The notes under the pieces were generated by a model. That model was not told where the DNA came from and did no database searches. It was given only the letters and a program-made list of their open reading frames with translations. Positions 21,039-42,325 of a DNA stretch of 51,438 nt are shown here, one piece after another. The DNA comes from a phage: sequence record PZ754631.1; one strand, given 5' to 3'. Made by a program: the position numbers and the translations under genes. How positions within the stretch are numbered: position 1 is the stretch's first letter; every line of letters begins with the position of its first letter.

Positions 21039-21120
21039 TATATACATACATATAAATCAATAAGTTAGTAGTATATATGTTTATATTTGTTTTTCTTGTT
21101 ATCTATGTTTTGTGTGATTT
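21039..21120 (+). repeat. ~75 bp AT-rich element with IHF-consensus core, copy 1
   Basis: exact 16-mer AAATCAATAAGTTAGT (21054-21069) matching WATCAANNNNTTR, followed by TATATATGT..TTATATTTGTTT..CTTGTT shared with copy 2. Confidence 0.6.
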
Positions 21121-21311
21121 TGTGTGTCTGGTGATTTTTTATGTGGTTGTGTATGTGTCAGTGTCTGTGTGTGTCTATATATCTATATCCGGCGCAAATT
21201 GAGGAACAAGAGAACAAAAAGACAACAAAGATATTTATCAATCACTTACATGTAAGTTTTGTTATCAAAGCTGGACAGAACGTTGCTAGAACAGAAAAAA
21301 CAAAACAACTA

Positions 21312-21339
21312 TTGACTAAACGCATCAAATAGCTACAAT
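21312..21339 (+). promoter_or_regulatory. sigma70-type promoter for recombination module
   Basis: TTGACT, 16-bp spacer, TACAAT; ATG about 30 nt downstream. Confidence 0.55.
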
Positions 21340-21368
21340 GCAGGCATACCAACCAACGAGGGCAAATC

Positions 21369-22430
21369 ATGAATAAGTTTATGGCGTACACCAGCGAAGA
21401 AATGAGTAACGAGCTTTATCACGATCCAGAAGCGTGGACGGCTGATTATGTTAGCGGCTCAAGCCTGGCAGAGATTTACAGCACATGCCCGGCAGCGTGG
21501 AAGTTCAAGCCGCGTGACGACAAGAGCAAGGCGCTAGTTTTTGGTACGCAGTCGCATACCAACTTTGAAAGCAGTGAGCTTTTCGAAAAAACCTATCGCC
21601 GTGCGCCAGCGCCAGAAGACTTTAAGGATCTGATAACCAGCCAAACGGCGCTTGCTGCAAAGCTAAAATCATTTGGCCTGAAAGGTACAACAGGAAAGAC
21701 TTACCCTGAACTTATAAAAATGTTGGTTGACTGCGGAGAAGACCTTAACGTTATGTGGTTAATCGACATGATCGCAGAAAGCCAGGCCATGGCCGATGGG
21801 GTTCAGTTAATCGAAGCTAAAGATTACGATGCGTGCGTGGCAATGCGCCAGGTTCTGGAATCAATACCGGAACATAACGCATGTATGAATAGCAAGACGG
21901 CACAACGTGAATTATCGTTGTTCGGTGAAATCAACGGCGTAAAAGTCAAAGTGCGATGCGATCACGTTGACGTAACAAAGAACGTCACCGCAACGCTGAT
22001 TGATGGTTACGATGAAAAAGGTCAGCCAATTTGCCGCGATATTATTTATCCAGAGGCCATTGTGATCACAGACTACAAAACCACAATGAGCGCGAATCCG
22101 GCTGAGTTTATGCGCCTGGCTTACAATCACGGCTATTATTTGAAAATGGCGTTGCAATGTGATTTATTCAGAAAAGCGTATCCAGAAGAAAAGCGACCTA
22201 TAGTTGTGCGACTGTTAGCGCAAGAGAAGAAAGAGCCTTATTTGCCGTTGGCTTTCCGCATGAACAGCGAGCAATTGAAGATCGGGCGCATTCAGTACAT
22301 GAGCGTAATTAACCAGTTTGCCATGTGCCAGCAACATAACGTTTGGCCTTCGTATTCAAACGGCGAGCCGGAGGTTTGCCTTGATACTCCTGATTGGGTG
22401 CGACGCCAGTTTAAGCAATATCTTATTTAA
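21369..22430 (+). CDS. RecB/Cas4-family (PD-(D/E)XK) exonuclease
   Basis: 353 aa; motifs CDHVD and ITDYKTT typical of RecB-like nuclease core; upstream of Erf and SSB. Confidence 0.65.
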   Translation: MNKFMAYTSEEMSNELYHDPEAWTADYVSGSSLAEIYSTCPAAWKFKPRDDKSKALVFGTQSHTNFESSELFEKTYRRAPAPEDFKDLITSQTALAAKLKSFGLKGTTGKTYPELIKMLVDCGEDLNVMWLIDMIAESQAMADGVQLIEAKDYDACVAMRQVLESIPEHNACMNSKTAQRELSLFGEINGVKVKVRCDHVDVTKNVTATLIDGYDEKGQPICRDIIYPEAIVITDYKTTMSANPAEFMRLAYNHGYYLKMALQCDLFRKAYPEEKRPIVVRLLAQEKKEPYLPLAFRMNSEQLKIGRIQYMSVINQFAMCQQHNVWPSYSNGEPEVCLDTPDWVRRQFKQYLI

Positions 22431-22511
22431 ACAGCACAAATAGCTAAACAAATGAAAAATGCGGTGTTATAATTCACCGCATAAGTTAACAACAAGCGTA
22501 AGGAAATAAAC

Positions 22512-22790
22512 ATGGAAAACAAACAAGTGTCAGAGGTAGCAATTCATATCAATAATTTTGCAACTGGCATAGCTATGTTGCTTCGTGACTTTGTTGCGCC
22601 GCTTGATCCAACGGCAGGCGCAGAAGAAATGGAGTACATCAGAAAAGTAATGGATGCAGTCGATAACGTCGTACTTGTTGCAACAATGAGCGAAGACAAC
22701 GAGGAAGCAATCAAGGCAGTAAAAGAAAGTTCTGATCGCATGATGGAAAATCTAATTAAATTACACACCAAAGAAGAAACAAAACATTAA
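22512..22790 (+). CDS. hypothetical protein
   Basis: 92 aa acidic ORF with RBS and own -10 box. Confidence 0.5.
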   Translation: MENKQVSEVAIHINNFATGIAMLLRDFVAPLDPTAGAEEMEYIRKVMDAVDNVVLVATMSEDNEEAIKAVKESSDRMMENLIKLHTKEETKH

Positions 22791-22835
22791 CAGTAACAAG
22801 GCGGCGAAAGCCGCCATTAATTACGGGAATTAATC

Positions 22836-23492
22836 ATGAAACTATCAGAGCAATTCGACAAGGTTTTACCAGCACTGCACAAGGCGCGCAGTTTGTTTGT
22901 AAAGGTTAAGAAGGATAAACAAAATACACACTTAAAAAACCGTTACGCTACACTTGATGCCGTTCTTGATGCAATCACTCCAGCATTGAACGATAACGAG
23001 CTAATGTTGATGCAGGATATGATTGAAAGCGAACAACCTAACCGCATCAAAGTTGAAACAACAGTTCTTCATGTTTCCGGTCAGTGGGTGAAATTCTATG
23101 CTGAATTACCAATCGTTAAAAACGATCCTCAAGGCGTCGGATCTGCATTCACATACGCGCGTCGTTATGCAGCCGCAGCAGCATTTGGCTTAAGCCAGGC
23201 AGACGATGACGCACAGATTGCCGTTAAATCTGCAAACGACTGGAAGCGTGACATTGAGAAATGCGAAAGCGTAAACGAATTGCAAGAAGTGCTTAAATCA
23301 GCATGGAAGGCAAGCGATCCGGCAAGCAAGCAGGTAATTAAAGAGCATTACGAGAAGCGCAAGGCAGAGCTTGAGATCGGCAAAGCACGAGGATTTAATC
23401 CAGCGCAACCAAAGCAAAATCTCGCCTCGCCAGAAGTTGACACAAAAAACGACGAGCAAGTAAAATCACAAAGTATCACTGATTTTGAATAA
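22836..23492 (+). CDS. erf: ERF-family single-strand annealing protein
   Basis: 218 aa; [13 protein letters not shown] region resembling ERF family; between exonuclease and SSB. Confidence 0.7.
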
Positions 23493-23536
23493 TTGACATG
23501 GGGCGCTTGCGCCCCTTTCTTACAGGAGAATAAATA

Positions 23537-23989
23537 ATGCATATTATTACTGGTGAGATCCGAAAAGAGCCGCGAGTAAAGCAAATGCCTAACGGCAGCA
23601 CACTTTATGTAGTTGAACTTTCAGAGCGATACAAAGATAAAGATGGAAACTGGCAATATACAAACTACAGTTTCTTTTTTAATGCGAAAACTGACGGACT
23701 TAATGGTTGGTATGCTGAGGCGTTCCAGGTTGGCAAGGTTATTTCTGTTTCTTGTGACACGCTGCGCATTGAAACGCGCGAATATAACGGAAAGATGTAT
23801 TCAAGTTTAATGCCAGGCGGATTTGCAAATCTTATCTTCAGTCAGCGCGGGGAAAGCCAGCAACAATATCAGCAGCGAACGCAAGGAGGATGGGGGCAGC
23901 CACAACAACAGAATCAACCGCAACAACCGCAACAGCCAAGACAAAGCAATCAGCCTCCTATGGACTTTGACGACGACATTCCTTTCTGA
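23537..23989 (+). CDS. ssb: single-stranded DNA-binding protein
   Basis: 150 aa; OB-fold-like N-terminus, Gln/Pro-rich linker and acidic C-terminal tail DFDDDIPF. Confidence 0.85.
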   Translation: MHIITGEIRKEPRVKQMPNGSTLYVVELSERYKDKDGNWQYTNYSFFFNAKTDGLNGWYAEAFQVGKVISVSCDTLRIETREYNGKMYSSLMPGGFANLIFSQRGESQQQYQQRTQGGWGQPQQQNQPQQPQQPRQSNQPPMDFDDDIPF

Positions 23990-23994
23990 TCAAC

Positions 23995-24018
23995 AAAGGG
24001 GCATTACGCCCCTTTTTC
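23995..24018. terminator. bidirectional terminator between ssb and leftward cluster
   Basis: GGGGC-ATTAC-GCCCC flanked by A- and T-runs. Confidence 0.6.
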
Positions 24019-24261
24019 ACTTTCAGCCATCCCAAGCACGGCAATAACCTTAACAGCAATTCGCTTTGCAAGTTCAGTTTGATGAGCGTTAAGTTTTCCA
24101 GTGGTCATTATTGACAACATTCCGCTCATACTTCCAAGCCCGTTAAAATCTGACATTGCCGATTTCATGATTGAAATTGGTGAGTGACCTTCATCAGCTA
24201 TTGTGTGCGCTCTCTCTGACAGGTCTTTAACTACCTGATCAATTCCTTCACTTTTCGTCAT
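24004..24261 (-). CDS. hypothetical protein
   Basis: 85 aa; last gene of leftward tail-fibre-downstream cluster; ends at bidirectional terminator. Confidence 0.45.
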   Translation of the reverse strand: MTKSEGIDQVVKDLSERAHTIADEGHSPISIMKSAMSDFNGLGSMSGMLSIMTTGKLNAHQTELAKRIAVKVIAVLGMAESEKGA

Positions 24262-24739
24262 TTGCTTTTCCTTCAGGAGTTGATTGCTGTTCTGGCATTA
24301 CAGGCCACGGGCTAATTGATTCCCTTTCTGCTACTGGCTTTTCAGGTTCAATTCCTAAAAACTTTCCTACAAACTCACCAACAAAATTTGAGCTATCGCT
24401 TACATAAACATGCATCCTGTCTAGATCTGCAACCGTAACGCTATTTGGTGCGATCATGATCCTCTGTTGGTGAAAACCGATATACATCACATTAGCCGGA
24501 CGCTCAAGAGTCCCCATATTTGGCGCAATTACGCCCATTATCCAACAATAATGAATGTTGCCATCAAGCGGCTCACATCCAGCGTTAAGCCAGTTTACTT
24601 TCTGGTGAGGAAACGCCATTGATGAATCAGTAGCATCACGCCGTAACGACCATTTAACGCCGCCAATCTCAATGATTTGTTTCGGCCTCATTCCGTTGAA
24701 TTGAGTCACGCCAGCGCCATTTTGATTAATGTTTTGCAT
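24248..24739 (-). CDS. hypothetical protein
   Basis: 163 aa; overlaps neighbours by a few nt (translational coupling). Confidence 0.5.
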   Translation of the reverse strand: MQNINQNGAGVTQFNGMRPKQIIEIGGVKWSLRRDATDSSMAFPHQKVNWLNAGCEPLDGNIHYCWIMGVIAPNMGTLERPANVMYIGFHQQRIMIAPNSVTVADLDRMHVYVSDSSNFVGEFVGKFLGIEPEKPVAERESISPWPVMPEQQSTPEGKANDEK

Positions 24740-24753
24740 ATCGGTTAACCTTT

Positions 24754-25077
24754 TTACATTGATTTCATTTTACGCAATGCGCAGATACAAGCGGCAGCAA
24801 GATCGGTTAATTCTTTCTCAATGCCATGATGCGAGCCGTCTGCCTTTTCGGTCATTAGCTCTTTGTATTCCATTTCTACAATCGACATTAAGCCGCCTGG
24901 CTTGTCAATGTGCGCGTCCCAGGTTTTAGGATGGTGCTTAGTTCTTTCAATAACACTTCCCATAACTGAATCATGTTCATGATCTCGATCATAATCTCCA
25001 TCATGGTCCTTTCCTCCAATTACTACTCGCGGCAAATGCACGCGCGGTAAATGATAGCCAGCGACACGAATTTTCAT
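24754..25077 (-). CDS. hypothetical His-rich protein
   Basis: 107 aa with many His/Asp (HDGDYDRDHEHD, HH pairs); RBS AAGGGGA after a terminator. Confidence 0.5.
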   Translation of the reverse strand: MKIRVAGYHLPRVHLPRVVIGGKDHDGDYDRDHEHDSVMGSVIERTKHHPKTWDAHIDKPGGLMSIVEMEYKELMTEKADGSHHGIEKELTDLAAACICALRKMKSM

Positions 25078-25093
25078 GAGTATATCCCCTTAT

Positions 25094-25117
25094 AAAAAAG
25101 CGCCCCGAAAGGCGCTT
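25094..25117 (-). terminator. intrinsic terminator (minus strand) inside leftward cluster
   Basis: on minus strand AGCGCC-loop-GGCGCT followed by T-run. Confidence 0.55.
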
Positions 25118-25123
25118 GATTTA

Positions 25124-25828
25124 TTAGCAACCGCAGCAGCCAGTCGGCGGAGTCGCCGGAGTAGGCAACTTGAAGTTTACCAATTGCTCTACATGGTTGA
25201 TTTTGCAATTCAGTGCGGCGGTCTGGTTTGCCTGAGAAAGAGCAAAACGCGCTTCCTGCAACTGAGCTTTCATATCGCAAATCAAAACAGCCTGAGAATC
25301 AGCAAACTGTTGACGAATCAGATCTCGCGTTGCGTTACCTTGTCGCTCAATGTTCAGGTTAGTCTCGCAGCAACATCTCTCCGCTGCAATCTGCGCTTGA
25401 TAGGAACGCTCAAGAGCATTAACATCAGCAGCATTAATCGCAGCAACCGTCTGGTTAGTACCGCTAACAATCGCGGTATTCAGTCCGGCGAAACCTTGCA
25501 CCGATGCAAGCAGGTTTTGCGTATTCTGGCTGGTAATGCCGTTAAAGGTTGATGCGGCGGAGCGCTCAACGGCAAGGTTTGTGGAATTTTGACCTTGCAG
25601 AGTTTGCAGCCCCAGGTTGTTTACACCTGTCTGGATGTTATTAATACCATCAAGAACAGCGTTAGCACCGACGGCAACAGCAGCGCCATCACCACCATAG
25701 CCACCACGACCATTAAAGCCGTTACCAAACCATGACCCAATCAGGCCGCCAACAGCACCGCCAAGACCAGCCGCGCCAGCTTCGCCACCAAAACCACCAC
25801 CAGTAGGGAGTAAAGTCATATCTGACAT
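25124..25828 (-). CDS. Gly-rich protein with C-terminal Cys clusters
   Basis: start at MSDM with RBS AGAGGA; N-terminal poly-Gly region, central Gln/Asn/Thr-rich coiled region, CCC and CCGC clusters. Confidence 0.55.
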   Translation of the reverse strand: MSDMTLLPTGGGFGGEAGAAGLGGAVGGLIGSWFGNGFNGRGGYGGDGAAVAVGANAVLDGINNIQTGVNNLGLQTLQGQNSTNLAVERSAASTFNGITSQNTQNLLASVQGFAGLNTAIVSGTNQTVAAINAADVNALERSYQAQIAAERCCCETNLNIERQGNATRDLIRQQFADSQAVLICDMKAQLQEARFALSQANQTAALNCKINHVEQLVNFKLPTPATPPTGCCGC

Positions 25829-26006
25829 AGTAAATTCCTCTTTGACGTTAAAAAAATTAAAAAAAGTTTGCAACATTTATGTTACGACAAAGAGTATGCG
25901 CCAAATTACCAGGAATAGATATAAAACATTTGTAAGCGATATGTCAGCAAATGGCATAAAGACGAAAAAAGGCGCAGCCGTAGCCGCGCCTTGTGATTAT
26001 TTTTTG

Positions 26007-27977
26007 TTAACTCTCAAGAGTTGTGGGCTTGTTGATCAATGCAGAAACAGCCGCCTTCAGTTCTTCAACCTCCTTTTCAAGTTTTGATATTCTTTCTTTG
26101 TTTTCAACATCACGCGCACGTAGAGCCTTTATTGCAGCCAAGCCATCAAGAAGCATCGGAGTTTGGTCAAGATGCCAAAAACCCCCAACATCCTTAACAT
26201 ATTCTCGGTCGATCTGCTTAATTTGCTGTGATATAACCCCTCTTCTTGTTGCGCCTCTGATTTCTTTAGTATGATGCTCATCTTTAAACTTGAATAGCTT
26301 AAACTCCATTCTATCTATGTTTGATAGCGCGCATTCAACGTCAAGATTTCCTAGTACATCATTCATTCTTTCATCAGACACCGCCGACGTCGTTACTTGC
26401 GCCCATGCAGACCACGAAGAAGCATTTGTCTGTATCCTTGTATAAATGCGGTTAGATGTGTCGTAGAATCTCTGTTGGTTCCACCTGCCATTAACACCTT
26501 GTGATGCAGTTTTTCCTTGAGATAATCCTTGCGTTGTTTGTGTAAATAGAGAACCATACGCATTACCAGAATAAGGTGCGTTTGAGTAAGCCCCACCAAT
26601 ATTAAGCCATCCTTGAGGAACAACATTAAAATCCTTTACATCACCAATACCAAGTATATTTGAATTTCCGTTAGGAGAAAGACCACCATCAAACGATACA
26701 TACATCCTCAGTGTTGAGTCTGGCCTTGGTATAGTAACTATGTTTCTTCCAGTGCTGTTATTCCCATTCGCAAAGAACACATTTAAAGCAGTTGACCTGT
26801 CATTCTCAAAGGATATTCTTCTTCCTATTGTGCTGTCATCAACCTGACTAGTTTTTAATGTTATAGCAGGCCAGGTTGTATGTACTGTCATACCAGCAAA
26901 AGTAGGTGAGTGTTGACTATTAAGCCCGATATTGTTACGAATCCCATTTGCATCTTTCGCACCTGTTCCACCTTTATCTATTGGTAAAGCTATACCACTA
27001 TTTGATGTAGAATCCCATGCACCCCAATCGCCATTATTTTTTACGAAAATTCGCTTTGTTCCATCAGCACTTAAAACGAAAGTTTCACCAGATTCTTCAG
27101 TTGTCTGCTTCAATCTGTCTACGCTTAGGTTTTTTCTTGCCTCACCTTTATCTGCAACATCGCTAAGGTTGTTGTTTTTGTTAAGCATATTTGCCGGATT
27201 TATGCTATCCGCATATTCTTTCGCCTTATCTTCAGAAGCCTTAGCGGCATTTTTTGAAGCCAGAGCATCAGAAGCAGATCTGGCAGCTTCGCTTTTGCTT
27301 GTACTCGCCGCGATTTCTGAATTTTTGGCATTTGTCTCGGACGTCTTTGCTGCATTCTGAGAAGCGAGCGCAGCATCCTGAGAATTTTTAGCGGCAATCT
27401 TGCTTTCATTGGCTGCATTCTCTGAATTTTTGGCATTTGTCTCCGACGTCTTTGCTGCGATCTTGCTCGCGTTGGCTGCGTTTTCTGACTCTTTGGCATT
27501 AGTCTCTGACGCTTCTGCTTCGTTCTTTGAATTAAGCGCATCAGCAGCAGATCTTGCCGCGGCATCCTTACTTTGATTCGCAGACGCTGCGTTTTCTTCC
27601 ACCTGTTTAGCCAAATCCTGATAATGCTTCCAATCAAACGTCTTAAAAAATTCCAGCGCTTCCCCGATCTCTGATTCTTTACTCTGATAGTAGCGCAATG
27701 TTTCAGCTACATCTTGAGCAAGCCCATCAACAGTTATTGAGTCATGAAGCAAGATCGCGTAATTTGAGCGAGTAACTACCGCGCCACCAGTTGTAATTGC
27801 ACGAATGCTTGTATCGTTAATAACTTCAGTTATCACGGCAATCTGCAACGGCTGAGTTAAAAATACAATAGTTGCACCAGGGCGAATGAGCGTTAGTTGC
27901 TCTCGCCATTTCGTGTCGTATCCAGTGATATAACCTTGAGCGTCCATTGACGCTTGTCCGGTTCTGTAAATTGCCAT
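26007..27977 (-). CDS. tail fibre protein with C-terminal intramolecular-chaperone-like domain
   Basis: 656 aa (start at MAIYRTG with RBS AGGAGA); Ala/Ser/Asn/Lys/Glu-rich tandem repeats; C-terminal SDERMN segment resembling S74 self-cleaving chaperone domains. Confidence 0.7.
   Translation of the reverse strand: MAIYRTGQASMDAQGYITGYDTKWREQLTLIRPGATIVFLTQPLQIAVITEVINDTSIRAITTGGAVVTRSNYAILLHDSITVDGLAQDVAETLRYYQSKESEIGEALEFFKTFDWKHYQDLAKQVEENAASANQSKDAAARSAADALNSKNEAEASETNAKESENAANASKIAAKTSETNAKNSENAANESKIAAKNSQDAALASQNAAKTSETNAKNSEIAASTSKSEAARSASDALASKNAAKASEDKAKEYADSINPANMLNKNNNLSDVADKGEARKNLSVDRLKQTTEESGETFVLSADGTKRIFVKNNGDWGAWDSTSNSGIALPIDKGGTGAKDANGIRNNIGLNSQHSPTFAGMTVHTTWPAITLKTSQVDDSTIGRRISFENDRSTALNVFFANGNNSTGRNIVTIPRPDSTLRMYVSFDGGLSPNGNSNILGIGDVKDFNVVPQGWLNIGGAYSNAPYSGNAYGSLFTQTTQGLSQGKTASQGVNGRWNQQRFYDTSNRIYTRIQTNASSWSAWAQVTTSAVSDERMNDVLGNLDVECALSNIDRMEFKLFKFKDEHHTKEIRGATRRGVISQQIKQIDREYVKDVGGFWHLDQTPMLLDGLAAIKALRARDVENKERISKLEKEVEELKAAVSALINKPTTLES
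27250..27560 (-). repeat. in-frame tandem repeats inside tail fibre gene (~105 bp period with sub-repeats)
   Basis: near-identical 38-mers TCTGAATTTTTGGCATTTGTCTC(G/C)GACGTCTTTGCTGC at ~27316 and ~27421; protein-level NAK(N/E)SENAAN(A/E)SKIAAK repeats. Confidence 0.6.
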
Positions 27978-28035
27978 GCGTTTTCTCCTATGTTGCATGT
28001 TAATGTCAATGCAGATAATAGCATTTGCTAAGGCC

Positions 28036-28058
28036 AAAAAAAACCCCGCAATGCGGGG
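28036..28058 (-). terminator. intrinsic terminator (minus strand) between primase and tail fibre
   Basis: CCCCGC-AAT-GCGGGG with run of T on minus strand. Confidence 0.6.
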
Positions 28059-29062: not shown

Positions 29063-29536
29063 TTAGCAATTAGTGCTTTCAGGTTTATACAGGAATCCGC
29101 CAGGTTCATAATCTGACATTCTTACCACTCGCAACATTTCACGCTTATCACATCTCTTTGTGAGCGGTTTACCATTGGAATCAAATCGCAGGTCTGGACG
29201 GCAGAATGAAGCGCGATAGCCTTGACAGCCATATTTTTTGTAATCGTTATGCACCTTTTGAGCGCCAGCGGCTGAAATCATACCGCGAACGCGCCACTGA
29301 TTTACAGTTTGCTGGCTAACGTTAAGACGCTTTGCCATTGCTGACACGCTGCCGTAATACTCAATAAGAATGTCAAGCCGTGCTTTTAGTCCGGCGCGCA
29401 CTTCATCTTTTAAAACATAGTATCCTGTAGGGCGCTTGCGCTTCTTCTTATCCTTCCCTCGTCGAGTTCCGTTGTTTCCATTAATTGTGCGCTTGTCAAT
29501 CTTGCCAGTTGATACTGCGATTCGCTGTTCTTTCAT
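29063..29536 (-). CDS. HTH DNA-binding protein (Cro/CI-type)
   Basis: 157 aa; basic N-terminus and HTH-like segment MAKRLNVSQQTVNQWRVRGMIS. Confidence 0.6.
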   Translation of the reverse strand: MKEQRIAVSTGKIDKRTINGNNGTRRGKDKKKRKRPTGYYVLKDEVRAGLKARLDILIEYYGSVSAMAKRLNVSQQTVNQWRVRGMISAAGAQKVHNDYKKYGCQGYRASFCRPDLRFDSNGKPLTKRCDKREMLRVVRMSDYEPGGFLYKPESTNC

Positions 29537-29548
29537 TATTCATTCTCC

Positions 29549-29592
29549 AATAGCATTTTTTGTTAAACGATGATTTAATGATTGTGTATTAT
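29549..29592 (+). promoter_or_regulatory. early promoter cassette driving helicase operon
   Basis: AATAGCATTTTTTGTTAAAC, 18-bp spacer, TATTAT. Confidence 0.5.
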
Positions 29593-29625
29593 ACACGCCA
29601 AATGGCATTACTCAAAGGTTTTAGA

Positions 29626-33602: not shown

Positions 33603-33613
33603 GGATTATTATC

Positions 33614-35666: not shown

Positions 35667-35668
35667 TC

Positions 35669-36055
35669 ATGAGAAAGTTATCAGCAATCGCGATCGCTGT
35701 TATTTTGTCTGGATGTTCAAGCGTTACGCCACTGACCGGATTGATAGGAAGCAAGCCTGAGATAACAGCACAGGCAGGAGCAGAGAACGTAAAGCAGACC
35801 GTTGGCGTTACCGCAAAGCAGGACACCAGTACAAAACAGGAAACTACAATAAAGGAATCTGCGGTTGATAAGGTGGACACGTCCAGCAAGAAGGATTTCA
35901 CTACATCAACCATTCAGGCTAACACCATCAAGGCTGATAAAATCCAGGTCGTGCAAGGTAATAACGGCAGATGGTACGACCCCATAATCATATGCGTGGT
36001 TGTGCTCATTGTGCTGATTTGGCTTTACTGGAGGGAAAAGAAAAAGGAGGCTTAA
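35669..36055 (+). CDS. unimolecular spanin (T1 gp11-like)
   Basis: N-terminal lipobox LSGC plus C-terminal TM helix (IIICVVVLIVLIWLYW); last gene of lysis cassette. Confidence 0.75.
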   Translation: MRKLSAIAIAVILSGCSSVTPLTGLIGSKPEITAQAGAENVKQTVGVTAKQDTSTKQETTIKESAVDKVDTSSKKDFTTSTIQANTIKADKIQVVQGNNGRWYDPIIICVVVLIVLIWLYWREKKKEA

Positions 36056-36068
36056 CGCCTCCTTTGTT
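36041..36068. terminator. bidirectional terminator after spanin gene
   Basis: GGAGGC-TTAAC-GCCTCC flanked by A-run and T-rich tail. Confidence 0.6.
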
Positions 36069-36261
36069 ATTCAATACGCTTTACAGTAACCAACAAAACG
36101 CCGTCCTCATCACACAAATTATGCTCTGATATATCAAACGCTCGCATGTCAGAATGAATGAGCGTTAACATTGCGTGCATGAAATCGTCATGTGAGATTG
36201 AACTTACGGCGCAGAACTTCAATATTTTGTCTATTAGCATTTGACGTAAACAATTCTTCAT
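36067..36261 (-). CDS. hypothetical small protein
   Basis: 64 aa ORF overlapping upstream gene end by 74 nt; start uncertain. Confidence 0.3.
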   Translation of the reverse strand: MKNCLRQMLIDKILKFCAVSSISHDDFMHAMLTLIHSDMRAFDISEHNLCDEDGVLLVTVKRIE

Positions 36262-36580
36262 CGCTCATTTCTCCGATCCGTAAAACATCCCTTACCCATT
36301 CGTTTTGCATACCTTCAAGGCTGTAAAGTTCAAACGAGAAAGGGCGATTTGCCGATCCTTTCTTACACCAGAACTTTCCACCAACTCCATCAAGATAACC
36401 AGCGGTCATCATTCTTGCGCAAAACTCTTTTGAAACAGCAGTCGCAAACATTCTCGGCGTAAATCCTGCGGCCCTTGCGAGCCGCTCACATTCTCTATGC
36501 TGAAATATAAATTTTGCGATATGTTGACGTGTAAACCATTCGAATGACTCACACCAGCGATACAGATCCAGAAGAAACAT
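36188..36580 (-). CDS. hypothetical protein
   Basis: 130 aa; start overlaps stop region of ATPase gene (coupled). Confidence 0.5.
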   Translation of the reverse strand: MFLLDLYRWCESFEWFTRQHIAKFIFQHRECERLARAAGFTPRMFATAVSKEFCARMMTAGYLDGVGGKFWCKKGSANRPFSFELYSLEGMQNEWVRDVLRIGEMSDEELFTSNANRQNIEVLRRKFNLT

Positions 36581-36582
36581 AA

Positions 36583-38166
36583 TTACCCCAGCAATGTTGG
36601 ATTTACGAAAACAACGCCATTAATCACGCAAATATAGTTTCTTTCCTCAAGCATCGGAAGCAGTTGCGTTTCCATGCGCTTCATTACGCCAGCCTGACCA
36701 ACAAACGGCTTAACTTTTCGTGCAGCCTCATATATGGCGCGAACATTCAAGATTCCCTTATTAGCCTTTCCGTGTCGAGTGATAATCTCGATTAGTTTAC
36801 CCATTTCAGCATCATCACCAGCGTAGCCAGAAGCGTTGGCGGCGCTAATGTATGTTTTGCTCAACTCGCTAAACATCAGCAGTGCTTCCTGAACGGTTTC
36901 AACCTCAATCTCTTTCGACTTTTGAGGGTATCCACCAGGATTAAACCAATTGCGGATAGTGTGCAAAACTGAAGCAATCCTGATCACCTGCTTATCCATT
37001 TTGCCAAGCGCACCGCGCAGCATTGTATGCGAATACTTTCCTCCATCAGCAAGGTGCGGCTCCATCTCCTGACGAGCCATGTTAAGAACTCGCATTGCTG
37101 ATTTGCTGATCTTAAGCTGGATGTTTGATTCACTCATGATGTTATGGATCAGCTTAAAATATTGACTTTTCAGTTCTCCATCAACAGGCTCATAAGTCGA
37201 ATCACCGTTATCATCAACAAACTTTCTACGGCCTAAAAATGATTCCTCACGCACAAGCAAATAACGCTCACTTACACCGATACCGCGCGATCCTGCATCC
37301 ATGATGGCATTGATTGTTTCATCCTGGGCAATTACCGCCATACAGCCAAGAGCTTTAAAACTCATATTGTTGTCAGCGTTTGCACGAGCTATAGAAACAT
37401 GACCATGATCCCATGCTTTCAGCACAAGTTCGCTGTTGGTTTTACGTTCGCTATTGGCATATGTCAGACCTAAAAGGCTGTTAATACTCGTTGCCTCGTC
37501 TGAAATCACAGCAAAGTTACCCTGGCGATTGTTGATTCTTGCAAGTCCTTCCGGCGTGGTGTCGGACACAGGGAAAACGATGTCACACATCTTTTCCAGC
37601 TTTTCTTCCAGATCTTCTTTCTCCTGGTACAGAGATTCCATATCAGCGCCGGAACGCTCGCTTTTCATCTCTTTTGCAAGACCTGCCAACTTTGCCTGAA
37701 TCTTTTTTCTTTCCTTCTTTCGCTGATCGTTAATTCTTTCCACTTCCGCAACCATTGGAGCAAGTGCCAGGCTGTTAACGGCAGATTTACCAGTTGAAGG
37801 AGGCTGGCTTGTGACAACATAAAGAGCGGTCGGCTGATCCGTTCCGTGATACTCAACCGTGAAGCGTCCAAGCATTGCAGCAGACACGCAGCCGATAAAA
37901 TGCATATATGCCGATGATTCAGGGAACTGAACTGATCGAGCAATGTTGCGCGCCAACTTTCCAACAACATCAACATCATTGCCAAGAGAAATTACAGGGT
38001 AGCGATCGTTTCCGTTATTAACATCATTAACCTCACCCCAAAAGCTGGACGATTGACGGTATCCGTTTGCCTGAATGGACACGCGCACCGGAGACAATCC
38101 TTGTGCATCAGCTAATTCGATAATTTGTTTTGGTGTTAGTTTATTGGTTTCAAACGAAAAATTCAT
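36583..38166 (-). CDS. P-loop NTPase (primase-associated/D5-like ATPase candidate)
   Basis: 527 aa from MNFSFETNK (RBS AAGGAG); Walker A-like PPSTGKS and Walker B-like FAVISDE; Lys/Glu coiled-coil insert; own promoter module. Confidence 0.6.
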   Translation of the reverse strand: MNFSFETNKLTPKQIIELADAQGLSPVRVSIQANGYRQSSSFWGEVNDVNNGNDRYPVISLGNDVDVVGKLARNIARSVQFPESSAYMHFIGCVSAAMLGRFTVEYHGTDQPTALYVVTSQPPSTGKSAVNSLALAPMVAEVERINDQRKKERKKIQAKLAGLAKEMKSERSGADMESLYQEKEDLEEKLEKMCDIVFPVSDTTPEGLARINNRQGNFAVISDEATSINSLLGLTYANSERKTNSELVLKAWDHGHVSIARANADNNMSFKALGCMAVIAQDETINAIMDAGSRGIGVSERYLLVREESFLGRRKFVDDNGDSTYEPVDGELKSQYFKLIHNIMSESNIQLKISKSAMRVLNMARQEMEPHLADGGKYSHTMLRGALGKMDKQVIRIASVLHTIRNWFNPGGYPQKSKEIEVETVQEALLMFSELSKTYISAANASGYAGDDAEMGKLIEIITRHGKANKGILNVRAIYEAARKVKPFVGQAGVMKRMETQLLPMLEERNYICVINGVVFVNPTLLG

Positions 38167-38193
38167 TGGTGATAACTCCTTTTTGATGCGGCA

Positions 38194-38239
38194 ATAATAC
38201 CGCACCAATGCTACCCGCATTTAACAAAAAATGCTATTT
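38194..38239 (-). promoter_or_regulatory. early promoter cassette (minus) driving P-loop ATPase gene
   Basis: minus strand AAATAGCATTTTTTGTTAAAT, ~19 bp, TATTAT. Confidence 0.45.
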
Positions 38240-38455
38240 GATCCGCTCTATGCTAACTAAGATTTTTTCTGGTTCCCTTGCGCTATTGCAATGCGCGGTT
38301 ACAGAATCAGCAAAATCAAAGTAAAGTGATTTGTGATATGATAATCCAATCAGCCACCCAACCATTGTTTTCTTTATTGGCCTGACTATATCGCCAGGCT
38401 TGAAGGTTTTTGTTGCTGAATGAGTCACCTTATAGCGATATTCAGCCTTGATCAC
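38234..38455 (-). CDS. hypothetical protein
   Basis: 73 aa; stop TAG embedded in promoter motif. Confidence 0.5.
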   Translation of the reverse strand: MIKAEYRYKVTHSATKTFKPGDIVRPIKKTMVGWLIGLSYHKSLYFDFADSVTAHCNSAREPEKILVSIERIK

Positions 38456-38838
38456 TTATACATAGCCTCAAACAAATGACATCCACCAGCGGAAAATCCA
38501 ACTTCTTCGCGGTATAGCGTCCAGCGGTCGCCAGCCTCATCAAACACATAACCAGCAACAGCGCCAAGCGCGCGGCCTTGCTCAATCTGGTAGCGCTTTC
38601 CTTCTTTGAAATGCTTTTTGCACGGAATCTTGTGATCTACAAAGGTGCATTTAATTGTTTTTGTTTTGATATGACGATAGTCAGACTCAACAGCGTTTTG
38701 CCACTTGCTACCCTTTGTAATGTTCTTTACCTGGAATTGCTCCAACTCGATCACATCATTGCTACCAGCAATTTTTTCGTATACAGCTTTATAACGACCG
38801 TTCATCAAAACGTTGGTTTTATTGCAGATAACTTTCAT
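38452..38838 (-). CDS. hypothetical protein
   Basis: 128 aa; RBS AAGGAG; preceded by promoter module. Confidence 0.55.
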   Translation of the reverse strand: MKVICNKTNVLMNGRYKAVYEKIAGSNDVIELEQFQVKNITKGSKWQNAVESDYRHIKTKTIKCTFVDHKIPCKKHFKEGKRYQIEQGRALGAVAGYVFDEAGDRWTLYREEVGFSAGGCHLFEAMYK

Positions 38839-38869
38839 CGTTTATTTCTCCTTTCGTTTCGGTGAGTTG

Positions 38870-38915
38870 ATTATGCCAGGCTTTTACACCTGGCTTTTAA
38901 CAAAAAGTGCTATTT
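38870..38915 (-). promoter_or_regulatory. early promoter cassette (minus)
   Basis: minus strand AAATAGCACTTTTTGTTAAAA, 19 bp hairpin (GCCAGG..CCTGGC), CATAAT. Confidence 0.5.
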
Positions 38916-39620
38916 TGCGTTTGCTTCAAAGACTGCGCGAGCAAAACCGCGCGGAGTGAGGGAGCGGATCATCTTTGTGCGAGATGATTTTCCGCCAGTT
39001 TTGGCCCAACCTGGATTATCCTTGTCGCCATCTTTAGGAATGATTGTTGCGCGCGGAGGAATAACAAATCCGTTTCCAGTCCAAAGGCATGTTTTCTTAA
39101 AGTACCGATCCCGCGCCGGAATAATATCAGGGAAGTCGGGATGCTTATCATCTTCCGGCAGATAGCCAGCATAATCGCACGGATGGAACGTATAATCAGG
39201 CTTTCGCCATAACGTTGACAACTTGCCAACCGGATTTTCGATCATGTAAGGAACACCGAAATAATCAGCTATATCAGCCGCGATCCTGCAAGTGTCGGCG
39301 GCCTCATCCTGGAATGATGGATTCTCAAGGCGCTTTTTGGCCCAATGGCGAGATCCGCTATTTGCAAGGTCGGTGCACGGCGGAAATGCCATAATAAAGT
39401 CAGGAATACCCCATTCCTCACAGCGCGCGCGGTGGTAAAATATTTCATCAATCCAGACGTTAACGTATTCGATATTCTCATGCTGTATGCGCACTGAGTG
39501 GTAATCACCGTGATCAGCATCATCGTAATTAAAGCAAATGCATTTATATCCAGCACCAGCCCAATCTTTAACGGCTTTACCAGATCCATCAAACAAAGAG
39601 AAAATTAAACCCTTATACAT
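38910..39620 (-). CDS. compact C5-cytosine methyltransferase-like protein
   Basis: motif I-like LFDGSG, motif IV-like FPPCTDLANSG (Cys present, Q replaced by T), motif VI-like ENPVG, motif IX-like LTPRGFARAV; 236 aa, no obvious target-recognition domain. Confidence 0.55.
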   Translation of the reverse strand: MYKGLIFSLFDGSGKAVKDWAGAGYKCICFNYDDADHGDYHSVRIQHENIEYVNVWIDEIFYHRARCEEWGIPDFIMAFPPCTDLANSGSRHWAKKRLENPSFQDEAADTCRIAADIADYFGVPYMIENPVGKLSTLWRKPDYTFHPCDYAGYLPEDDKHPDFPDIIPARDRYFKKTCLWTGNGFVIPPRATIIPKDGDKDNPGWAKTGGKSSRTKMIRSLTPRGFARAVFEANAK

Positions 39621-39629
39621 TTCATCACC

Positions 39630-39854
39630 TCAAAACGGAAAGCATCGTGGGCAGTTAGGATCGAAGTTGCAGCCGCAATCATTTACAATCATGGTTGGAT
39701 CTGCAAATGCAGCGCCGCATTCGTGATCCATATCCATTTCACCAAGCGCATCATCAAGCTTTCTGATCTTATATGCAACTTCAAGAGCGGCCTCTTTATT
39801 CAGCCCAGCATCTTCCGCTTTTTGCAGTCGCTCAAAAAATCCGTCCTGGCTCAT
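39630..39854 (-). CDS. hypothetical Cys-rich small protein
   Basis: 74 aa; C-terminal CGCNFDPNCPRC cluster. Confidence 0.5.
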   Translation of the reverse strand: MSQDGFFERLQKAEDAGLNKEAALEVAYKIRKLDDALGEMDMDHECGAAFADPTMIVNDCGCNFDPNCPRCFPF

Positions 39855-39973
39855 TTCATAAACTCCTTCATAAACTCCTTGATAACAATCAGAATAATAG
39901 CAATACCAGCAGTGACAACTAAAAGACCAACAAGGCCAATCATCACACCAAATAAAATATCAAGAAATTTCAT
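39851..39973 (-). CDS. small single-TM membrane peptide (~40 aa)
   Basis: below track threshold; RBS AGGTGA; hydrophobic core GVMIGLVGLLVVTAGIAIILIVI; TGA overlaps next ATG. Confidence 0.4.
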   Translation of the reverse strand: MKFLDILFGVMIGLVGLLVVTAGIAIILIVIKEFMKEFMK

Positions 39974-40022
39974 CATTATTATCACCTTTATTTAAAGGGA
40001 GGCGAAACCTCCCGTTTATTAA

Positions 40023-40250
40023 TTAGATAGCCTTCCAGCTTTCAATAAACATGCTGTTTTCTTCCAGCAGTTTAATCAATTCTTCGCGCGTATATTTGCG
40101 AATTTTACTACCTGGATGTGAGCCAACAACAAACACACCTTTACCACTCGTGATGGTTAACTGGTTGATTCCGCAAGATTTATCCATCTTGATGGCGACG
40201 CGGTGATGTGCATCAACAGTGTGCATTATGTTAGTGACTTTAGCTTTCAT
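40023..40250 (-). CDS. hypothetical protein
   Basis: 75 aa from MKAKV (RBS GAGGA, promoter module upstream); followed by hairpin. Confidence 0.5.
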   Translation of the reverse strand: MKAKVTNIMHTVDAHHRVAIKMDKSCGINQLTITSGKGVFVVGSHPGSKIRKYTREELIKLLEENSMFIESWKAI

Positions 40251-40281
40251 TATGCGATCCTCGTTCGTTGTCGATGCGCTT

Positions 40282-40326
40282 AATATACCAATCAGGCGCA
40301 TACCGGTTTTAACAAAAAGTGCTATT
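40282..40326 (-). promoter_or_regulatory. early promoter cassette (minus)
   Basis: minus strand motif, 19 bp, TATATT. Confidence 0.5.
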
Positions 40327-40612
40327 CAACAACAGATCCAGTTAAAGAGATAAGTGCTCTTGTGATCTTGTGTCTGCGATACTGCCGCGCAACAACCGGA
40401 AGATTTTCACCGCTTTGATGACCGAAGCAGATCGGCAACTCACCTTCAAGAGAGCGGAAGCCGCCAAATTCAAGATCCCGCACTGGCTTTGAGCGCCACG
40501 CTTCAATAAATCCGCGTTCGTCACGCGTGATATAGCGGTATATGTTCGGGAGGGGCAATTGTATCCCCTCAAAATCCACGGTATCGGTATAGCTGTAAAA
40601 CTTAGAACTCAT
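40322..40612 (-). CDS. hypothetical protein
   Basis: 96 aa; stop TAG in promoter motif. Confidence 0.5.
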   Translation of the reverse strand: MSSKFYSYTDTVDFEGIQLPLPNIYRYITRDERGFIEAWRSKPVRDLEFGGFRSLEGELPICFGHQSGENLPVVARQYRRHKITRALISLTGSVVE

Positions 40613-40754
40613 AGTCAACAACTCCAAATTCGTTTACGATTTGCGCCTTATAGAAGCCGCCATTTTTCGCCAGGTTATAACATGCCGCTACAGTTTCAAA
40701 TTCGCGCACTTCCGGCTGGCTGTTTTCGTGTTCCCAGGTAATCAGAGTAACCAT
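40602..40754 (-). CDS. hypothetical small protein
   Basis: 50 aa from MVTL; track start rejected because it covers the promoter -10. Confidence 0.4.
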   Translation of the reverse strand: MVTLITWEHENSQPEVREFETVAACYNLAKNGGFYKAQIVNEFGVVDYEF

Positions 40755-40787
40755 TTTCAAATCCTCGCATTCGTTTTCGATGTGTGT

Positions 40788-40831
40788 AATGTACAGGAAC
40801 ACGAGGATTGAGTTTTAACAAAAAGTGCTAT
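40788..40831 (-). promoter_or_regulatory. early promoter cassette (minus)
   Basis: minus strand motif, 19 bp, TACATT. Confidence 0.5.
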
Positions 40832-41098
40832 TTAGTCCAGGAATTCGATTTCACGTTCTCCAGTTGAAGGATTTACAAGCCAGAATCCGAGCGGTTCGCC
40901 GTAAATACCGCCATAGAATCCAAGCGCCGCCAGATCTTCACCGTTAACAAAGGCCAGATTCCCGCTACGGCTTACGTGCGACACGTTGACGATAGCCGGA
41001 AAGGTGCGTTTTTTAAAATCAGGCCGCAGGGCGTAACATCCATTGTTAAGCAGTCGTGCTTTGCGTTTTACTGGAATAGGTGCATTGATTCGCGCCAT
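40832..41098 (-). CDS. hypothetical protein
   Basis: 88 aa; RBS AAGGAGA. Confidence 0.55.
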   Translation of the reverse strand: MARINAPIPVKRKARLLNNGCYALRPDFKKRTFPAIVNVSHVSRSGNLAFVNGEDLAALGFYGGIYGEPLGFWLVNPSTGEREIEFLD

Positions 41099-41113
41099 CT
41101 TTATTTCTCCTTA

Positions 41114-41386
41114 TTAATCATCTTCAAGCGGATCGTAATCATCAACCACAAAATCAAGCGGGGAATAGTTATCAACCTCAAAGTCAATACATTTTGCCTG
41201 TTCATCACAGTTAGATGTTTCAATCAAATATTCACCGTAATGATCTGGATCATCAAGCCTGGTAACAATGACGCGCGTCATGTGTCGCCCACATCCGTAA
41301 CGATCTGCAAGGTGATCTCGCTGTACGCTAAATCCGTTTTTATATGCGCGTTCAAGCGCGTTTCGTAATGCTTCGTGCTTAACCAT
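41114..41386 (-). CDS. hypothetical protein with acidic C-terminus
   Basis: 90 aa from MVKHEAL; C-terminal DFVVDDYDPLEDD. Confidence 0.5.
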   Translation of the reverse strand: MVKHEALRNALERAYKNGFSVQRDHLADRYGCGRHMTRVIVTRLDDPDHYGEYLIETSNCDEQAKCIDFEVDNYSPLDFVVDDYDPLEDD

Positions 41387-41618
41387 GTTTAACGATCTCC
41401 AGAACATCACAGGACTCGTTAATGAATTTAGCCATACGTTTATCATCACCAACAGGGATTAGCGCATTACACTCGCGTTTGCTACTGAATACCGTCACTT
41501 TATGAAACGATGCGAACGGCATCGACGGGAACTCGACTGTTTTCGTCAAGATCCGCAATCCAATCTTTTTGGCCCTTACCTGGGCCTCTGCAAGTTCAAA
41601 ATCCACTTCATCAATCAT
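41379..41618 (-). CDS. hypothetical protein
   Basis: 79 aa; ATGA coupling to upstream gene. Confidence 0.5.
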   Translation of the reverse strand: MIDEVDFELAEAQVRAKKIGLRILTKTVEFPSMPFASFHKVTVFSSKRECNALIPVGDDKRMAKFINESCDVLEIVKHG

Positions 41619-41887
41619 TTCTTGATCTCCTCAGCAATAAACTTCAGGACTTTGCGCAAAAACACTTCATTATTGATGGTCGCTGGCAATTCCTCTTTCA
41701 CTTCTTGCGGCAGATAGATATTGCCGTGCCAGGTTAAGCAATCGTAATTGATGCGATAAGAGCAAAGCCACTCGCAATCGTTATCCGCTTCCCAAATGCA
41801 GAGTTGCAGAACATCGCCAAAATTCTCAACAGTCAGGTCCAGACCATGACGCTTGGCGAAATTGAAAGTGGTTTTGCTGATGTTCAT
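41615..41887 (-). CDS. hypothetical protein (first gene of leftward early arm)
   Basis: 90 aa; RBS AGGAGAAAG; promoter module immediately upstream. Confidence 0.55.
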   Translation of the reverse strand: MNISKTTFNFAKRHGLDLTVENFGDVLQLCIWEADNDCEWLCSYRINYDCLTWHGNIYLPQEVKEELPATINNEVFLRKVLKFIAEEIKK

Positions 41888-41925
41888 TTGCTTTCTCCTG
41901 ATGGGTATCTCGTTTCGATGTGTCT

Positions 41926-41971
41926 AATGTACCCGATCAGGATGATTCAGTTTTAACAAAAAGTGCTATTT
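41926..41971 (-). promoter_or_regulatory. early promoter cassette (minus), first of leftward arm
   Basis: minus strand motif, 19 bp, TACATT; RBS and ATG of gene 41887. Confidence 0.5.
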
Positions 41972-41982
41972 CTCAACTGGCG

Positions 41983-42024
41983 ATTATTCCAACTATTCCA
42001 TTAATCAGGAATAACAAGAATAAC
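41983..42024. promoter_or_regulatory. operator-like nested inverted repeat in non-coding hub
   Basis: ATTATTCC-AAC-TATTCC-ATTAATCA-GGAATA-ACAA-GAATAAC; half-sites TATTCC/GGAATA duplicated around an ATTAAT centre. Confidence 0.4.
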
Positions 42025-42249
42025 TCATTCGCGATCACCTGGATTGTGAGACTTTGAGTTTGGTCAATTTTAATCAAGTGATTAACTTTTTGTGTGGAGG
42101 GGATAGAGAAACGCGGTCCTCTTGCATCCTTTCCGGCATTCCTGGCGCGCAACATGTTCATTATGTTTCCAGCCGTTCACGCAAATAAGCCTCCGCAGTT
42201 CTTCTACGTTTCATGCCGTCATGCACACAAAAGAAACAAAGTAAAATCT

Positions 42250-42325
42250 ATATAAATACACATTAAATCAATAAGTTAGTTATATATGTATTTATATTTG
42301 TTTCTTATTGTTCTTGTTGTGTGAT
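42250..42325 (+). repeat. ~75 bp AT-rich element with IHF-consensus core, copy 2
   Basis: same 16-mer at 42265-42280 and ~80% identity over flanks to copy 1, same orientation. Confidence 0.6.

Follow-up and report, generated by a model that had tools for sequence, protein, structure and literature searches.

Why would a T1-like phage carry, 21 kb apart, two identical copies of a 16-mer that occurs nowhere else in its genome? The 16-mer is AAATCAATAAGTTAGT and the genome is the phage record PZ754631.1, a stretch of 51,438 nt (51.4 kb) which, at its whole length, is called the window below and which looks like the complete genome of a T1-like siphovirus of the Hanrivervirus type (Drexlerviridae, Tempevirinae). 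Judged from sequence, each 16-mer marks the centre of a non-coding module of about 350-450 bp; the two modules, A and B, are paralogous and have places fixed in the family: A lies upstream of the exoVIII/Erf/SSB operon and B beside the mapped packaging (pac) end. On balance, the modules look most like sites of nucleoprotein assembly, each centred on a block that is prone to unwinding and putatively bent by integration host factor (IHF), and we put at roughly 40% the probability that the modules are IHF-bent DNA-unwinding sites acting as replication origins.

The exact 16-bp pair with similar flanks, pointed out by the first-pass annotation, was confirmed, with both copies on the + strand. The window holds exactly two matches, none further appear with up to two mismatches, and two matches were reached in none of 100 dinucleotide shuffles. 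The element had been described as about 75 bp long; the similarity is real, but its length was understated, as local alignment pairs 21039-21147 with 42249-42359 (about 110 bp) at a score of 93, versus 32 ± 6 (maximum 54) in shuffles preserving local composition. A profile made from region-A orthologues only matched the window at 21031-21111 and 42239-42320 and nowhere besides, and in every complete Tempevirinae genome it gave exactly two matches in about 50 kb, at A and at B. The surroundings, 500 bp (20869-21368) and 750 bp (41888-42637), have the sizes first proposed for them. Three open reading frames (ORFs) in these regions (21141-21332, 42331-42486 and 41973-42161) are broken in relatives 91-95% identical, so both regions are non-coding over their full lengths, and small proteins coded in the G+T tracts or in the pac-like segment of region B were rejected on the same ground. 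The last of these ORFs (62 aa, - strand) matches nothing in PHROG or Pfam, and frameshifts interrupt it in relatives 93-95% identical. Although hypothetical proteins are annotated at this place in some database records, a gene is improbable, the DNA being kept as non-coding pac-like sequence.

The universal property of these sites in the family is physical, namely low duplex stability, and not the 16-mer. We scanned whole genomes with the nearest-neighbour model in windows of 60 bp and 120 bp, covering six Drexlerviridae genomes of four lineages: T1 (Tunavirinae), PZ754631.1, TLS and atuna (Tempevirinae), Rtp (Braunvirinae) and the Webervirus KP1801. In six of the six, and at both window sizes, the centres of A and B ranked first and second for lowest stability. 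Their minima of -53 to -59 kcal/mol per 60 bp lie about 5 standard deviations (SD) from the averages of the genomes, which run from -82 to -86 with an SD of about 5; in each genome the third-ranked site (-63 to -67) is clearly apart from them. In PZ754631.1 the least stable 60-bp duplex (21034-21093, -58 against a mean of -82, SD 4.8) falls in the core of module A and the second least stable (42238-42297, -59) in that of module B. The extremes hold in T1, Rtp and KP1801 although the cores there share little sequence with those of the window. A local extreme of this kind is the general mark of a DNA unwinding element at an origin, and here it occupies ranks 1 and 2 in six genomes.

Conservation of the 16-mer as such is narrower. 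Both modules recur at the same two positions throughout the family, as seen in a comparison with T1-like relatives of the kind suggested by the first-pass annotation, but exact identity of the A and B 16-mers is confined to a sub-lineage consisting of the window, aaroes and one IMG/VR contig; in a close relative, Shigella phage 2019SD1, the A core of the window is kept and the B core, AAAAATAAGGATTATT, is non-consensus. For region B, orthologues reached via the right-flanking gene came from 4 loci only, and sequences from several genera diverged too far for their alignment to seed a scan; loci anchored on terS were used. Outside T1-like phages, no match to the element was found in 72,556 plasmids or 5,426 E. 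coli genomes, and a portable element was rejected accordingly; 15 genome_contigs and 4 viral_contigs that match the pattern are otherwise unlike the window and represent chance hits.

The modules had also been described as marking both divergent control regions of the genome. This is inexact: transcription diverges at three points (about 20.9-21.4 kb, 29.54-29.56 kb and 41.9-42.6 kb), and the element is present at two, the third ranking about sixth in the melting scan. In Webervirus, moreover, the A module sits between co-directional genes (primase and exoVIII in KP1801), which ties the module to its position and not to divergent transcription or promoters.

To derive the architecture of the modules, regions A and B of the window, T1, TLS, Rtp and atuna were laid out in one orientation, and 43 region-A orthologues from IMG/VR were aligned, with block conservation taken from 18 representative ones. 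The parts follow a common order (Table 1): first a copy of the 21-nt family repeat for the leftward gene, then a left bracket of the TGTTCAC-GAAT-TTGCG type, an A/C-rich arm, a TATAAT-like box, the TA-rich core, a T/G-rich tract, a right bracket of the CCGCG-AAAAT-TCGTGAACA type, which mirrors the left one in inverted form, a second IHF-like box and finally a consensus sigma-70 promoter for the rightward gene. The counterparts of these short inverted brackets in other lineages are read as plainly repeated sites for protein binding. Conservation of the module A core (0.69-0.72) is at the level of the sigma-70 promoter and exceeds that of the adjacent cor gene, and TTGACTA is the best-conserved block of region A. 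The CCG(G)CG-AAAT-GTGAACA block is conserved in A and B of several genera, and CCGCGRAAA occurs a single time in the whole window, in the right bracket of module B. Conservation of region B in most relatives is confined to about 42219-42323, that is, to the core.

Table 1 Positions of module parts, genes and repeats in PZ754631.1
Feature	Position	Strand	Basis or remark
16-mer AAATCAATAAGTTAGT, copy A	21054-21069	+	IHF consensus AATCAATAAGTTA at 21055-21067
16-mer AAATCAATAAGTTAGT, copy B	42265-42280	+	IHF consensus AATCAATAAGTTA at 42266-42278
Module A, 21-nt repeat copy, ATAGCACTTTTTGCTAAA on - strand, upstream of leftward cor gene	20925-20942	-	Repeat search
Module A, left bracket TGTTCTCAAATCTGCGGAG, holds one GWGAACA-type site	20965-20983	+	Conserved block, 18 orthologues
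Module A, AT/TA-rich core	21031-21111	+	nhmmer profile match, 44.8 bits
Module A, G+T-skewed, C-poor tract (A15 C6 G27 T63)	21070-21180	+	Top-ranked G+T window
Module A, right bracket TATATCCGGCGCAAATTGAGGAACAAGAGAACA (CCGGCG-AAAT box and GAACA repeats)	21184-21216	+	
Module A, second IHF-consensus box TATCAATCACTTA	21236-21248	+	Perfect consensus; 76 bp upstream of -35
Module A, rightward sigma-70 promoter TTGACT-16-TACAAT for exoVIII/Erf/SSB	21312-21339	+	Promoter scan 10/12
Module B, 21-nt repeat copy for leftward early genes	41952-41969	-	
B-only segment resembling TLS/T1 pac ends (CGATCACCTGGATTGTGAG / ACTTTGAG)	42030-42100		Placed by similarity only
Module B, left bracket CGTTCACGCAAATAAGCCTCCGCAG	42174-42198	+	
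Module B, AT/TA-rich core	42239-42320	+	nhmmer, 40.0 bits
Module B, G+T-skewed, C-poor tract (A26 C10 G38 T83)	42284-42440	+	Second-ranked G+T, lowest C content
Module B, right bracket TATATCCGCGAAAATTCGTGAACA	42441-42464	+	
Module B, second IHF-like box AATCATGCGCTTA	42502-42514	+	8/9; 68 bp upstream of -35
Module B, rightward promoter TTGACA-17-CAACAT for DUF7174 gene and early genes beyond	42570-42598	+	
Terminase, head and tail genes	up to 20610	+	
cor lipoprotein gene	20641-20868	-	PHROG 1119
Region A, non-coding	20869-21368		500 bp
exoVIII, Erf-like annealing protein, SSB	21369-23989	+	
Tail fibre, primase and Cro-like helix-turn-helix protein (29063-29536) block	to 29536	-	
SF2 helicase, VRR-NUC, Dam and repair exonuclease block	from 29560	+	
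DUF3987-type helicase (36583-38220) and small early genes block	36067-41887	-	
Region B, non-coding	41888-42637		750 bp
Small early genes	from region B to genome end	+	
DUF7174 protein gene	42638-43096	+	First rightward gene beside region B
21-nt repeat copies	e.g. 32073, 33114, 43358, 43815, 44352, 45356, 46688, 49341	+	
21-nt repeat copies	e.g. 6342, 10102, 20923, 38218, 38894, 40306, 40812, 41950	complement	

An IHF consensus in the core was part of the initial description, and WATCAANNNNTTR indeed fits at 21055-21067 and 42266-42278 (13-bp cores, scored with WATCAANNNNTTR or WATCARNNNNTTR), preceded on the 5' side by the A/T-rich tracts ACATACATATA and ATACACATTA. The window contains 10 matches to WATCAANNNNTTR, versus 4.2 ± 2.05 expected, and four of these lie in or beside regions A and B. 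For the family, we counted perfect matches to WATCARNNNNTTR in the 80-bp segment around each melting minimum of 45 distinct A and B cores; 20 cores had one, versus 3.4% of composition-matched shuffles, with no change of orientation among them and with each match near the middle of the AT-rich block. These 20 comprise at least seven sequence-distinct groups that differ at the four free positions (TAAG, TGAG, TAGT, TGGT, CCTT, CTAG, TTAG), the pattern expected of a selected IHF site. We rely on this count instead of a per-position conservation plot, which was anchored on the relaxed consensus and hence is partly circular; all 22 of the 22 aligned cores have a context above 80% A+T, these being sequences picked on that same relaxed consensus. 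Tempevirinae have a second box, WATCA(A/T)NNNCTTA, upstream of the -35, at a distance of 76-79 bp in all A copies and of 66-68 bp in module B. Consensus enrichment and fixed place thus suggest that IHF would bind the cores in this lineage, although the site is not universal in the family; the B copies of TLS, Stevie and Rtp are one mismatch away from the consensus. Our literature search found no paper on IHF and T1-like phages.

To the right of each core runs a G+T-skewed, C-poor tract, and here the first-pass annotation was borne out, as the two tracts are ranks 1 and 2 of the G+T windows genome-wide (0.84-0.86 G+T versus a genome mean of 0.50, SD about 0.07) and, at 3% C, the most C-poor in the genome. 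The short TGTG/TTGTT repeats reported in them are present but weak, appearing in Tandem Repeats Finder as low-scoring arrays of period 10 and 9 (21072-21126 and 42302-42320), and the tract sequence accumulates indels in close relatives. Strand composition switches at the core from A/C-rich on the left to G/T-rich on the right, so that anything starting at the centre would meet the same strand composition both ways. Helical phasing and curvature were not robust, B being high on some indicators but A not.

The right end of each module is a promoter. The published re-annotation of TLS predicts three sigma-70 promoters only, P01 (region B), P51 (region A) and P57 (third divergence point), and the promoters of the window at 21312-21339 and 42570-42598, with consensus-type -35 and -10 hexamers, are orthologous to P51 and P01, respectively. 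The -10 of the latter is weak in the window and unlisted by a simple scan, and it was placed by alignment with TLS P01 and with TTGACA-17-GATAAT of atuna. Two of the three host-type promoters accompany a module, with the core 260-300 bp upstream. The modules may be control hubs of early transcription with no role as origins, an alternative nearly as probable as origins, in which they are extended upstream regions of strong host-type early promoters. IHF at the core and at the promoter-proximal box would fold the DNA; a phage regulator, e.g. the Cro-like protein, would sit on the flanking repeats and switch both early units jointly, like lambda OL/OR; the TA-rich block would serve as a bendable or UP-like element, or hold extra promoters; and the C-poor leaders would keep Rho off untranslated early transcripts. 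Such hubs would account for an A/B homology that takes in promoter and leader, for the occurrence of two of the only three predicted sigma-70 promoters of TLS, all at divergence points, in modules A and B, for the second IHF-like box at a fixed 66-79 bp from the -35, and for conservation of the TATAAT-like box on the left border of the AT-rich block; phage early promoters with an IHF site upstream, e.g. lambda pL and Mu Pe, are familiar cases. However, a distance of 260-300 bp is far past the ordinary range of UP elements or activators, sequence inspection found no -35 beside the TATAAT-like box, and a genome-wide melting extreme of 60-120 bp in six genomes exceeds what a promoter needs. The third sigma-70 promoter region has neither module nor repeats, so a promoter as such can function without the module. 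Control hubs and origins are not mutually exclusive, since both roles would be united in an origin activated by transcription.

The repeats on either side of the core are lineage-specific 7-mers that occur on both sides of the centre and in both orientations. All six genomic copies of TGTAACA in T1, and all six of CCGCGGA in Rtp, are in modules A and B, as are 14 of 19 copies of GTAAGAT in KP1801 and 4 of 8 of GTGAACA in TLS. The Cro-like protein resembles Cro-family structures (E = 2e-5 and 3e-4) and is conserved, and its recognition helix differs between lineages as the repeats do, which again would suit control hubs; the repeat overlapping the -10 in region B of T1 points the same way. The lineage motifs are, however, absent in any genome examined from the third promoter region, where this protein is encoded, and autoregulatory operators at the promoter of its own gene were rejected; in the window, no palindromic operator overlapping the promoters was found. 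KP1801 has an 18-bp perfect palindrome of its repeat, CGTAAGATGCATCTTACG, which with its 16-bp core occurs once per module near the sigma-70 promoters (KP1801 positions 6785-6802 and 23034-23049), a further feature in line with transcriptional control and a clean candidate operator for finding the module-binding protein.

A separate family of repeats is formed by the 21-nt sequence AATAGCACTTTTTGTTAAAAC, with at least 16 copies in the window. Copies beside early genes are co-oriented with them and are often followed by a GC hairpin and by CATAAT about 22 bp downstream; in KP1801, ATAGCACTTTTTG of this repeat is joined directly to a TTGACT -35. The third divergence point (29537-29620), with the Cro-like regulator and primase leftward and the SF2 helicase rightward, has a gap of 23 bp between ORFs and holds a copy of the 21-nt repeat together with a conserved GTGTATTATAC box common to T1, TLS and KP1801; no module features were found there. 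The 21-nt repeat has been described before for TLS and T1, with its function counted among the open questions (PMC11447400).

Region B also includes the start of packaging. The records of T1, TLS and Rtp each have their coordinate 1 within the stretch corresponding to region B, with the B melting minimum 214-220 bp to its right, and the 2.8-kb terminal repeat of T1 begins there. Published mapping placed the TLS pac end about 5,882 bp from a HindIII site and reported a single pac fragment; HindIII cuts the TLS record at 5876, in agreement with coordinate 1 as the mapped end. The SU57 paper puts a genome end in the same untranslated region. The pac-proximal segment is rich in TGATTG/GATG (window 42030-42100; TLS 49850-49902/1-60; T1 48790-48836/1-60) and conserved at 93-95% despite the broken ORF over it. 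Just left of the mapped TLS and T1 ends are the GATC-containing hexamers CGATCA, TGATCG and TGATCA, which are reminiscent of the hexamers methylated by Dam at P1 pac; a Dam gene is present in the phage itself. From this similarity, the pac cut of the window is predicted near 42.02-42.05 kb. One might then see the module as a packaging accessory, an IHF-bent element that helps terminase at pac (cf. lambda cos and P1 pac), with copy A as a secondary packaging site, and the neighbouring ends with their cluster of P1-like hexamers would speak for it. We consider this very unlikely. The TGATTG/GATC-rich segment is absent from region A, which has the module nonetheless, and over 200 bp separate the cut from the core, so the shared module is distinct from pac and region B is pac plus module; further, copy A is 21 kb away inside the genome, mapping gave a single pac fragment, and the first packaging cut does not coincide with the module.

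That two same-orientation copies might mediate deletion, inversion or site-specific exchange had also been raised, and a duplicated spacer kept alike by gene conversion would be a variant of the same idea. The 16-bp identity of the copies and the exoVIII/Erf genes of the phage are in its favour, yet we regard it as the least probable of the explanations considered. Across phages, A copies cluster with A and B copies with B; A/B identity within genomes (0.55-0.73) is not above that between genomes, which excludes homogenisation, and concerted evolution was not seen. Neither the fixed orientation nor the identical crossover cores of a recombination pair are found: KP1801 has the modules inverted relative to each other, and in 2019SD1, TLS and atuna the core of A is unlike that of B. 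No site-specific recombinase was seen among the annotated genes. The two modules evolve independently, and deletion would be lethal, as the intervening 21 kb holds replication, tail-fibre and lysis genes.

Module B contains an imperfect 40-bp palindrome (42224-42263 / 42284-42323) and folds far better than shuffles (z = -4.0 to -4.5 overall, -4.3 to -4.5 for the core), with atuna B (z = -2.5) and TLS B (z = -2.1) modestly better, which raises the idea of a core cruciform or hairpin, or of a non-coding G/U-rich RNA made from the tract. This too is highly improbable: A of the window, all other A copies and the B copies of T1 and Rtp fold no better than shuffles, there is no Rfam match at gathering threshold anywhere in the window and no terminator after the tract, and the tract gathers indels in close relatives. 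A cruciform or hairpin as the shared feature was rejected, as it is confined to some B copies and found in no A copy. For packaging, copy-to-copy recombination, cruciform or RNA, and coding, specific tests speak against each one, and these readings are rejected or unlikely.

Origins and nucleoid-protein-organised promoter hubs, both named by the first-pass annotation, still lead, strengthened by the genome-wide melting minima, the positional conservation across the family and the lineage-specific repeats on the flanks. We favour origins, a function read from the sequence as IHF binding and unwinding in vivo are, because conserved melting minima coincide with an IHF site in the AT-rich block and repeats on both flanks, because the module is independent of divergent transcription in Webervirus and missing from the third promoter, because strand composition switches at the centre, and because no other origin candidate exists in a phage with its own helicase and primase but relying on the host polymerase. 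Replication genes identified in the window are those for a primase, a DUF3987-type helicase and an SF2 helicase, with no polymerase and no recognisable initiator among them. According to published work, the origin of T1-like phages has yet to be found (PMC11447400; PMC7718038). In the mechanism we propose, IHF would bend the centre of the module, a phage protein would bind the flanking repeats, negative supercoiling from the adjoining early transcription would aid opening of the TA-rich block, and the DUF3987-type helicase and primase would be loaded there, both modules serving as origins with the host polymerase. A bolder version, to which we give a somewhat lower probability, would have two dispersed paralogous origins that need no dedicated origin-binding initiator of known type: IHF-bent TA blocks opened by supercoiling and transcription, possibly primed outward by G/U-rich R-loops, one at the recombination operon and the other beside pac, coupling early transcription, replication, recombination and packaging at two hubs.

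A number of observations weigh against origins. Every module holds one of the rare consensus sigma-70 promoters of the phage and the A/B homology spans that promoter, so much of this evidence would equally follow from a purely transcriptional role. High A+T content is usual in long non-coding regions, and phage swi2, an outgroup from outside the family, has one milder melting minimum in a divergent intergenic region. The A copies of Tlsvirus and all T1-type copies score at background for IHF, which means that IHF is no universal requirement. The G+T skew, present in the window and atuna and moderate in TLS, is absent in T1 and Rtp, and was rejected as a family trait. The flanking repeat of the window is weak (GWGAACA, 4 of 12 copies in modules), and the sole candidate binding protein identified is Cro-like, which suggests operators, not iterons. 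DnaA boxes (TTATNCACA) number 0-3 per module pair with one mismatch, versus 0.9-1.3 expected, with no perfect one; GATC occurs 0-1 times in region A, and in B only in the pac-proximal part, against a genome average of about 5 per kb. With DnaA boxes not enriched and GATC depleted, an oriC-like, DnaA-dependent origin was rejected. Our search for T1-family origins, replication intermediates and transcription-start maps gave nothing relevant beyond the TLS and SU57 papers. The strongest results show selection on position, physical property and consensus, and not which process starts there.

T1 is one of the seven classic T phages, and Drexlerviridae rank among the coliphage groups isolated most often, being notorious as laboratory contaminants and also supplying candidates for therapy. 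The paired modules, their melting extremes and the IHF consensus are not described in the literature within our reach. They are the best candidates yet for the never-mapped replication origins of the T1 family, or else for its early control hubs. The two-copy 16-mer thereby becomes a family-wide prediction: two sites of about 100 bp per genome that are its two melting minima and, in many lineages, carry an IHF consensus. If they are origins, they would be cis elements for building T1-based replicons or for disabling replication; if they are control hubs, they would define the early regulatory switch. The split of the shared module from the pac-proximal segment helps to place genome ends in new assemblies.

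A few other observations concern the rest of the genome. Region A is 92-96% identical to that of Escherichia and Shigella Hanrivervirus phages such as Fulano1, pSf-1 and aaroes. About 18-19 GenBank records in the range MG065636-MG065687, labelled "Campylobacter phage", are 93-95% identical over both regions to this coliphage-type genome, and their attribution to a Campylobacter host looks doubtful. Throughout Tempevirinae, the DUF7174 gene stays in the same place (39-47% identity); the counterparts that T1 and Rtp have are remoter (18-23%). A 63-bp tandem repeat (2.1 copies, 81% matches; 27397-27527) is located within the tail-fibre gene on the - strand.

Compared with known systems, the modules share partial likeness with several. 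Region B resembles P1 pac and lambda cosB in that about 250 bp take in a packaging start, GATC hexamers and an IHF consensus, but the shared element is also present at A, a place without packaging, and the IHF box lies over 200 bp away from the cut. Lambda OL/OR with Cro, lambda pL and Mu Pe also involve two related control regions, each with a strong early promoter, a Cro-like protein encoded by the phage and IHF-like boxes at a fixed distance upstream of the promoter; unlike OL/OR, the core here is 260-300 bp upstream, the repeats are missing from the regulator's own promoter and, in the window, no palindromic operator lies over the promoters. At T4 oriF(uvsY) and oriG(34), a promoter is followed by a downstream unwinding element that holds an R-loop primer, comparable with the TATAAT-like box at the left edge of the unwinding block, with the G/T-rich non-template strand downstream, which would favour a stable RNA-DNA hybrid, and with the location of module A at recombination genes, as oriF is at uvsY; the modules differ in having no -35 or MotA-type box and in the missing G+T skew of T1 and Rtp.

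A further parallel is the pac-type siphovirus SPP1 with its distant origin regions oriL and oriR, and P4 ori/crr is comparable. These too are two separated, related cis regions with protein-binding repeats and an adjacent AT-rich segment, and SPP1 likewise has a headful-packaged siphovirus genome of roughly 45-50 kb. No sequence or protein homology to the initiators G38P and alpha is known, and oriL of SPP1 lies inside the initiator gene, whereas both modules here are intergenic. From pSC101 ori, R6K gamma ori and E. coli oriC the modules are set apart by DnaA boxes not above chance, by the lack of a GATC cluster and by two copies per genome, and from iteron origins by 7-mer repeats, weak in the window, in place of iterons of 17-22 bp, with no initiator gene identified. 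With these three origins they nevertheless share an extreme AT-rich melting block, an IHF site in or beside it (the arrangement of an IHF site inside an AT-rich unwinding region being known from oriC, pSC101 and R6K), short repeated motifs on the flanks and nearby transcription directed away. The type of element is thus a familiar one: an AT-rich unwinding block with an IHF site and flanking repeats, close to early promoters.

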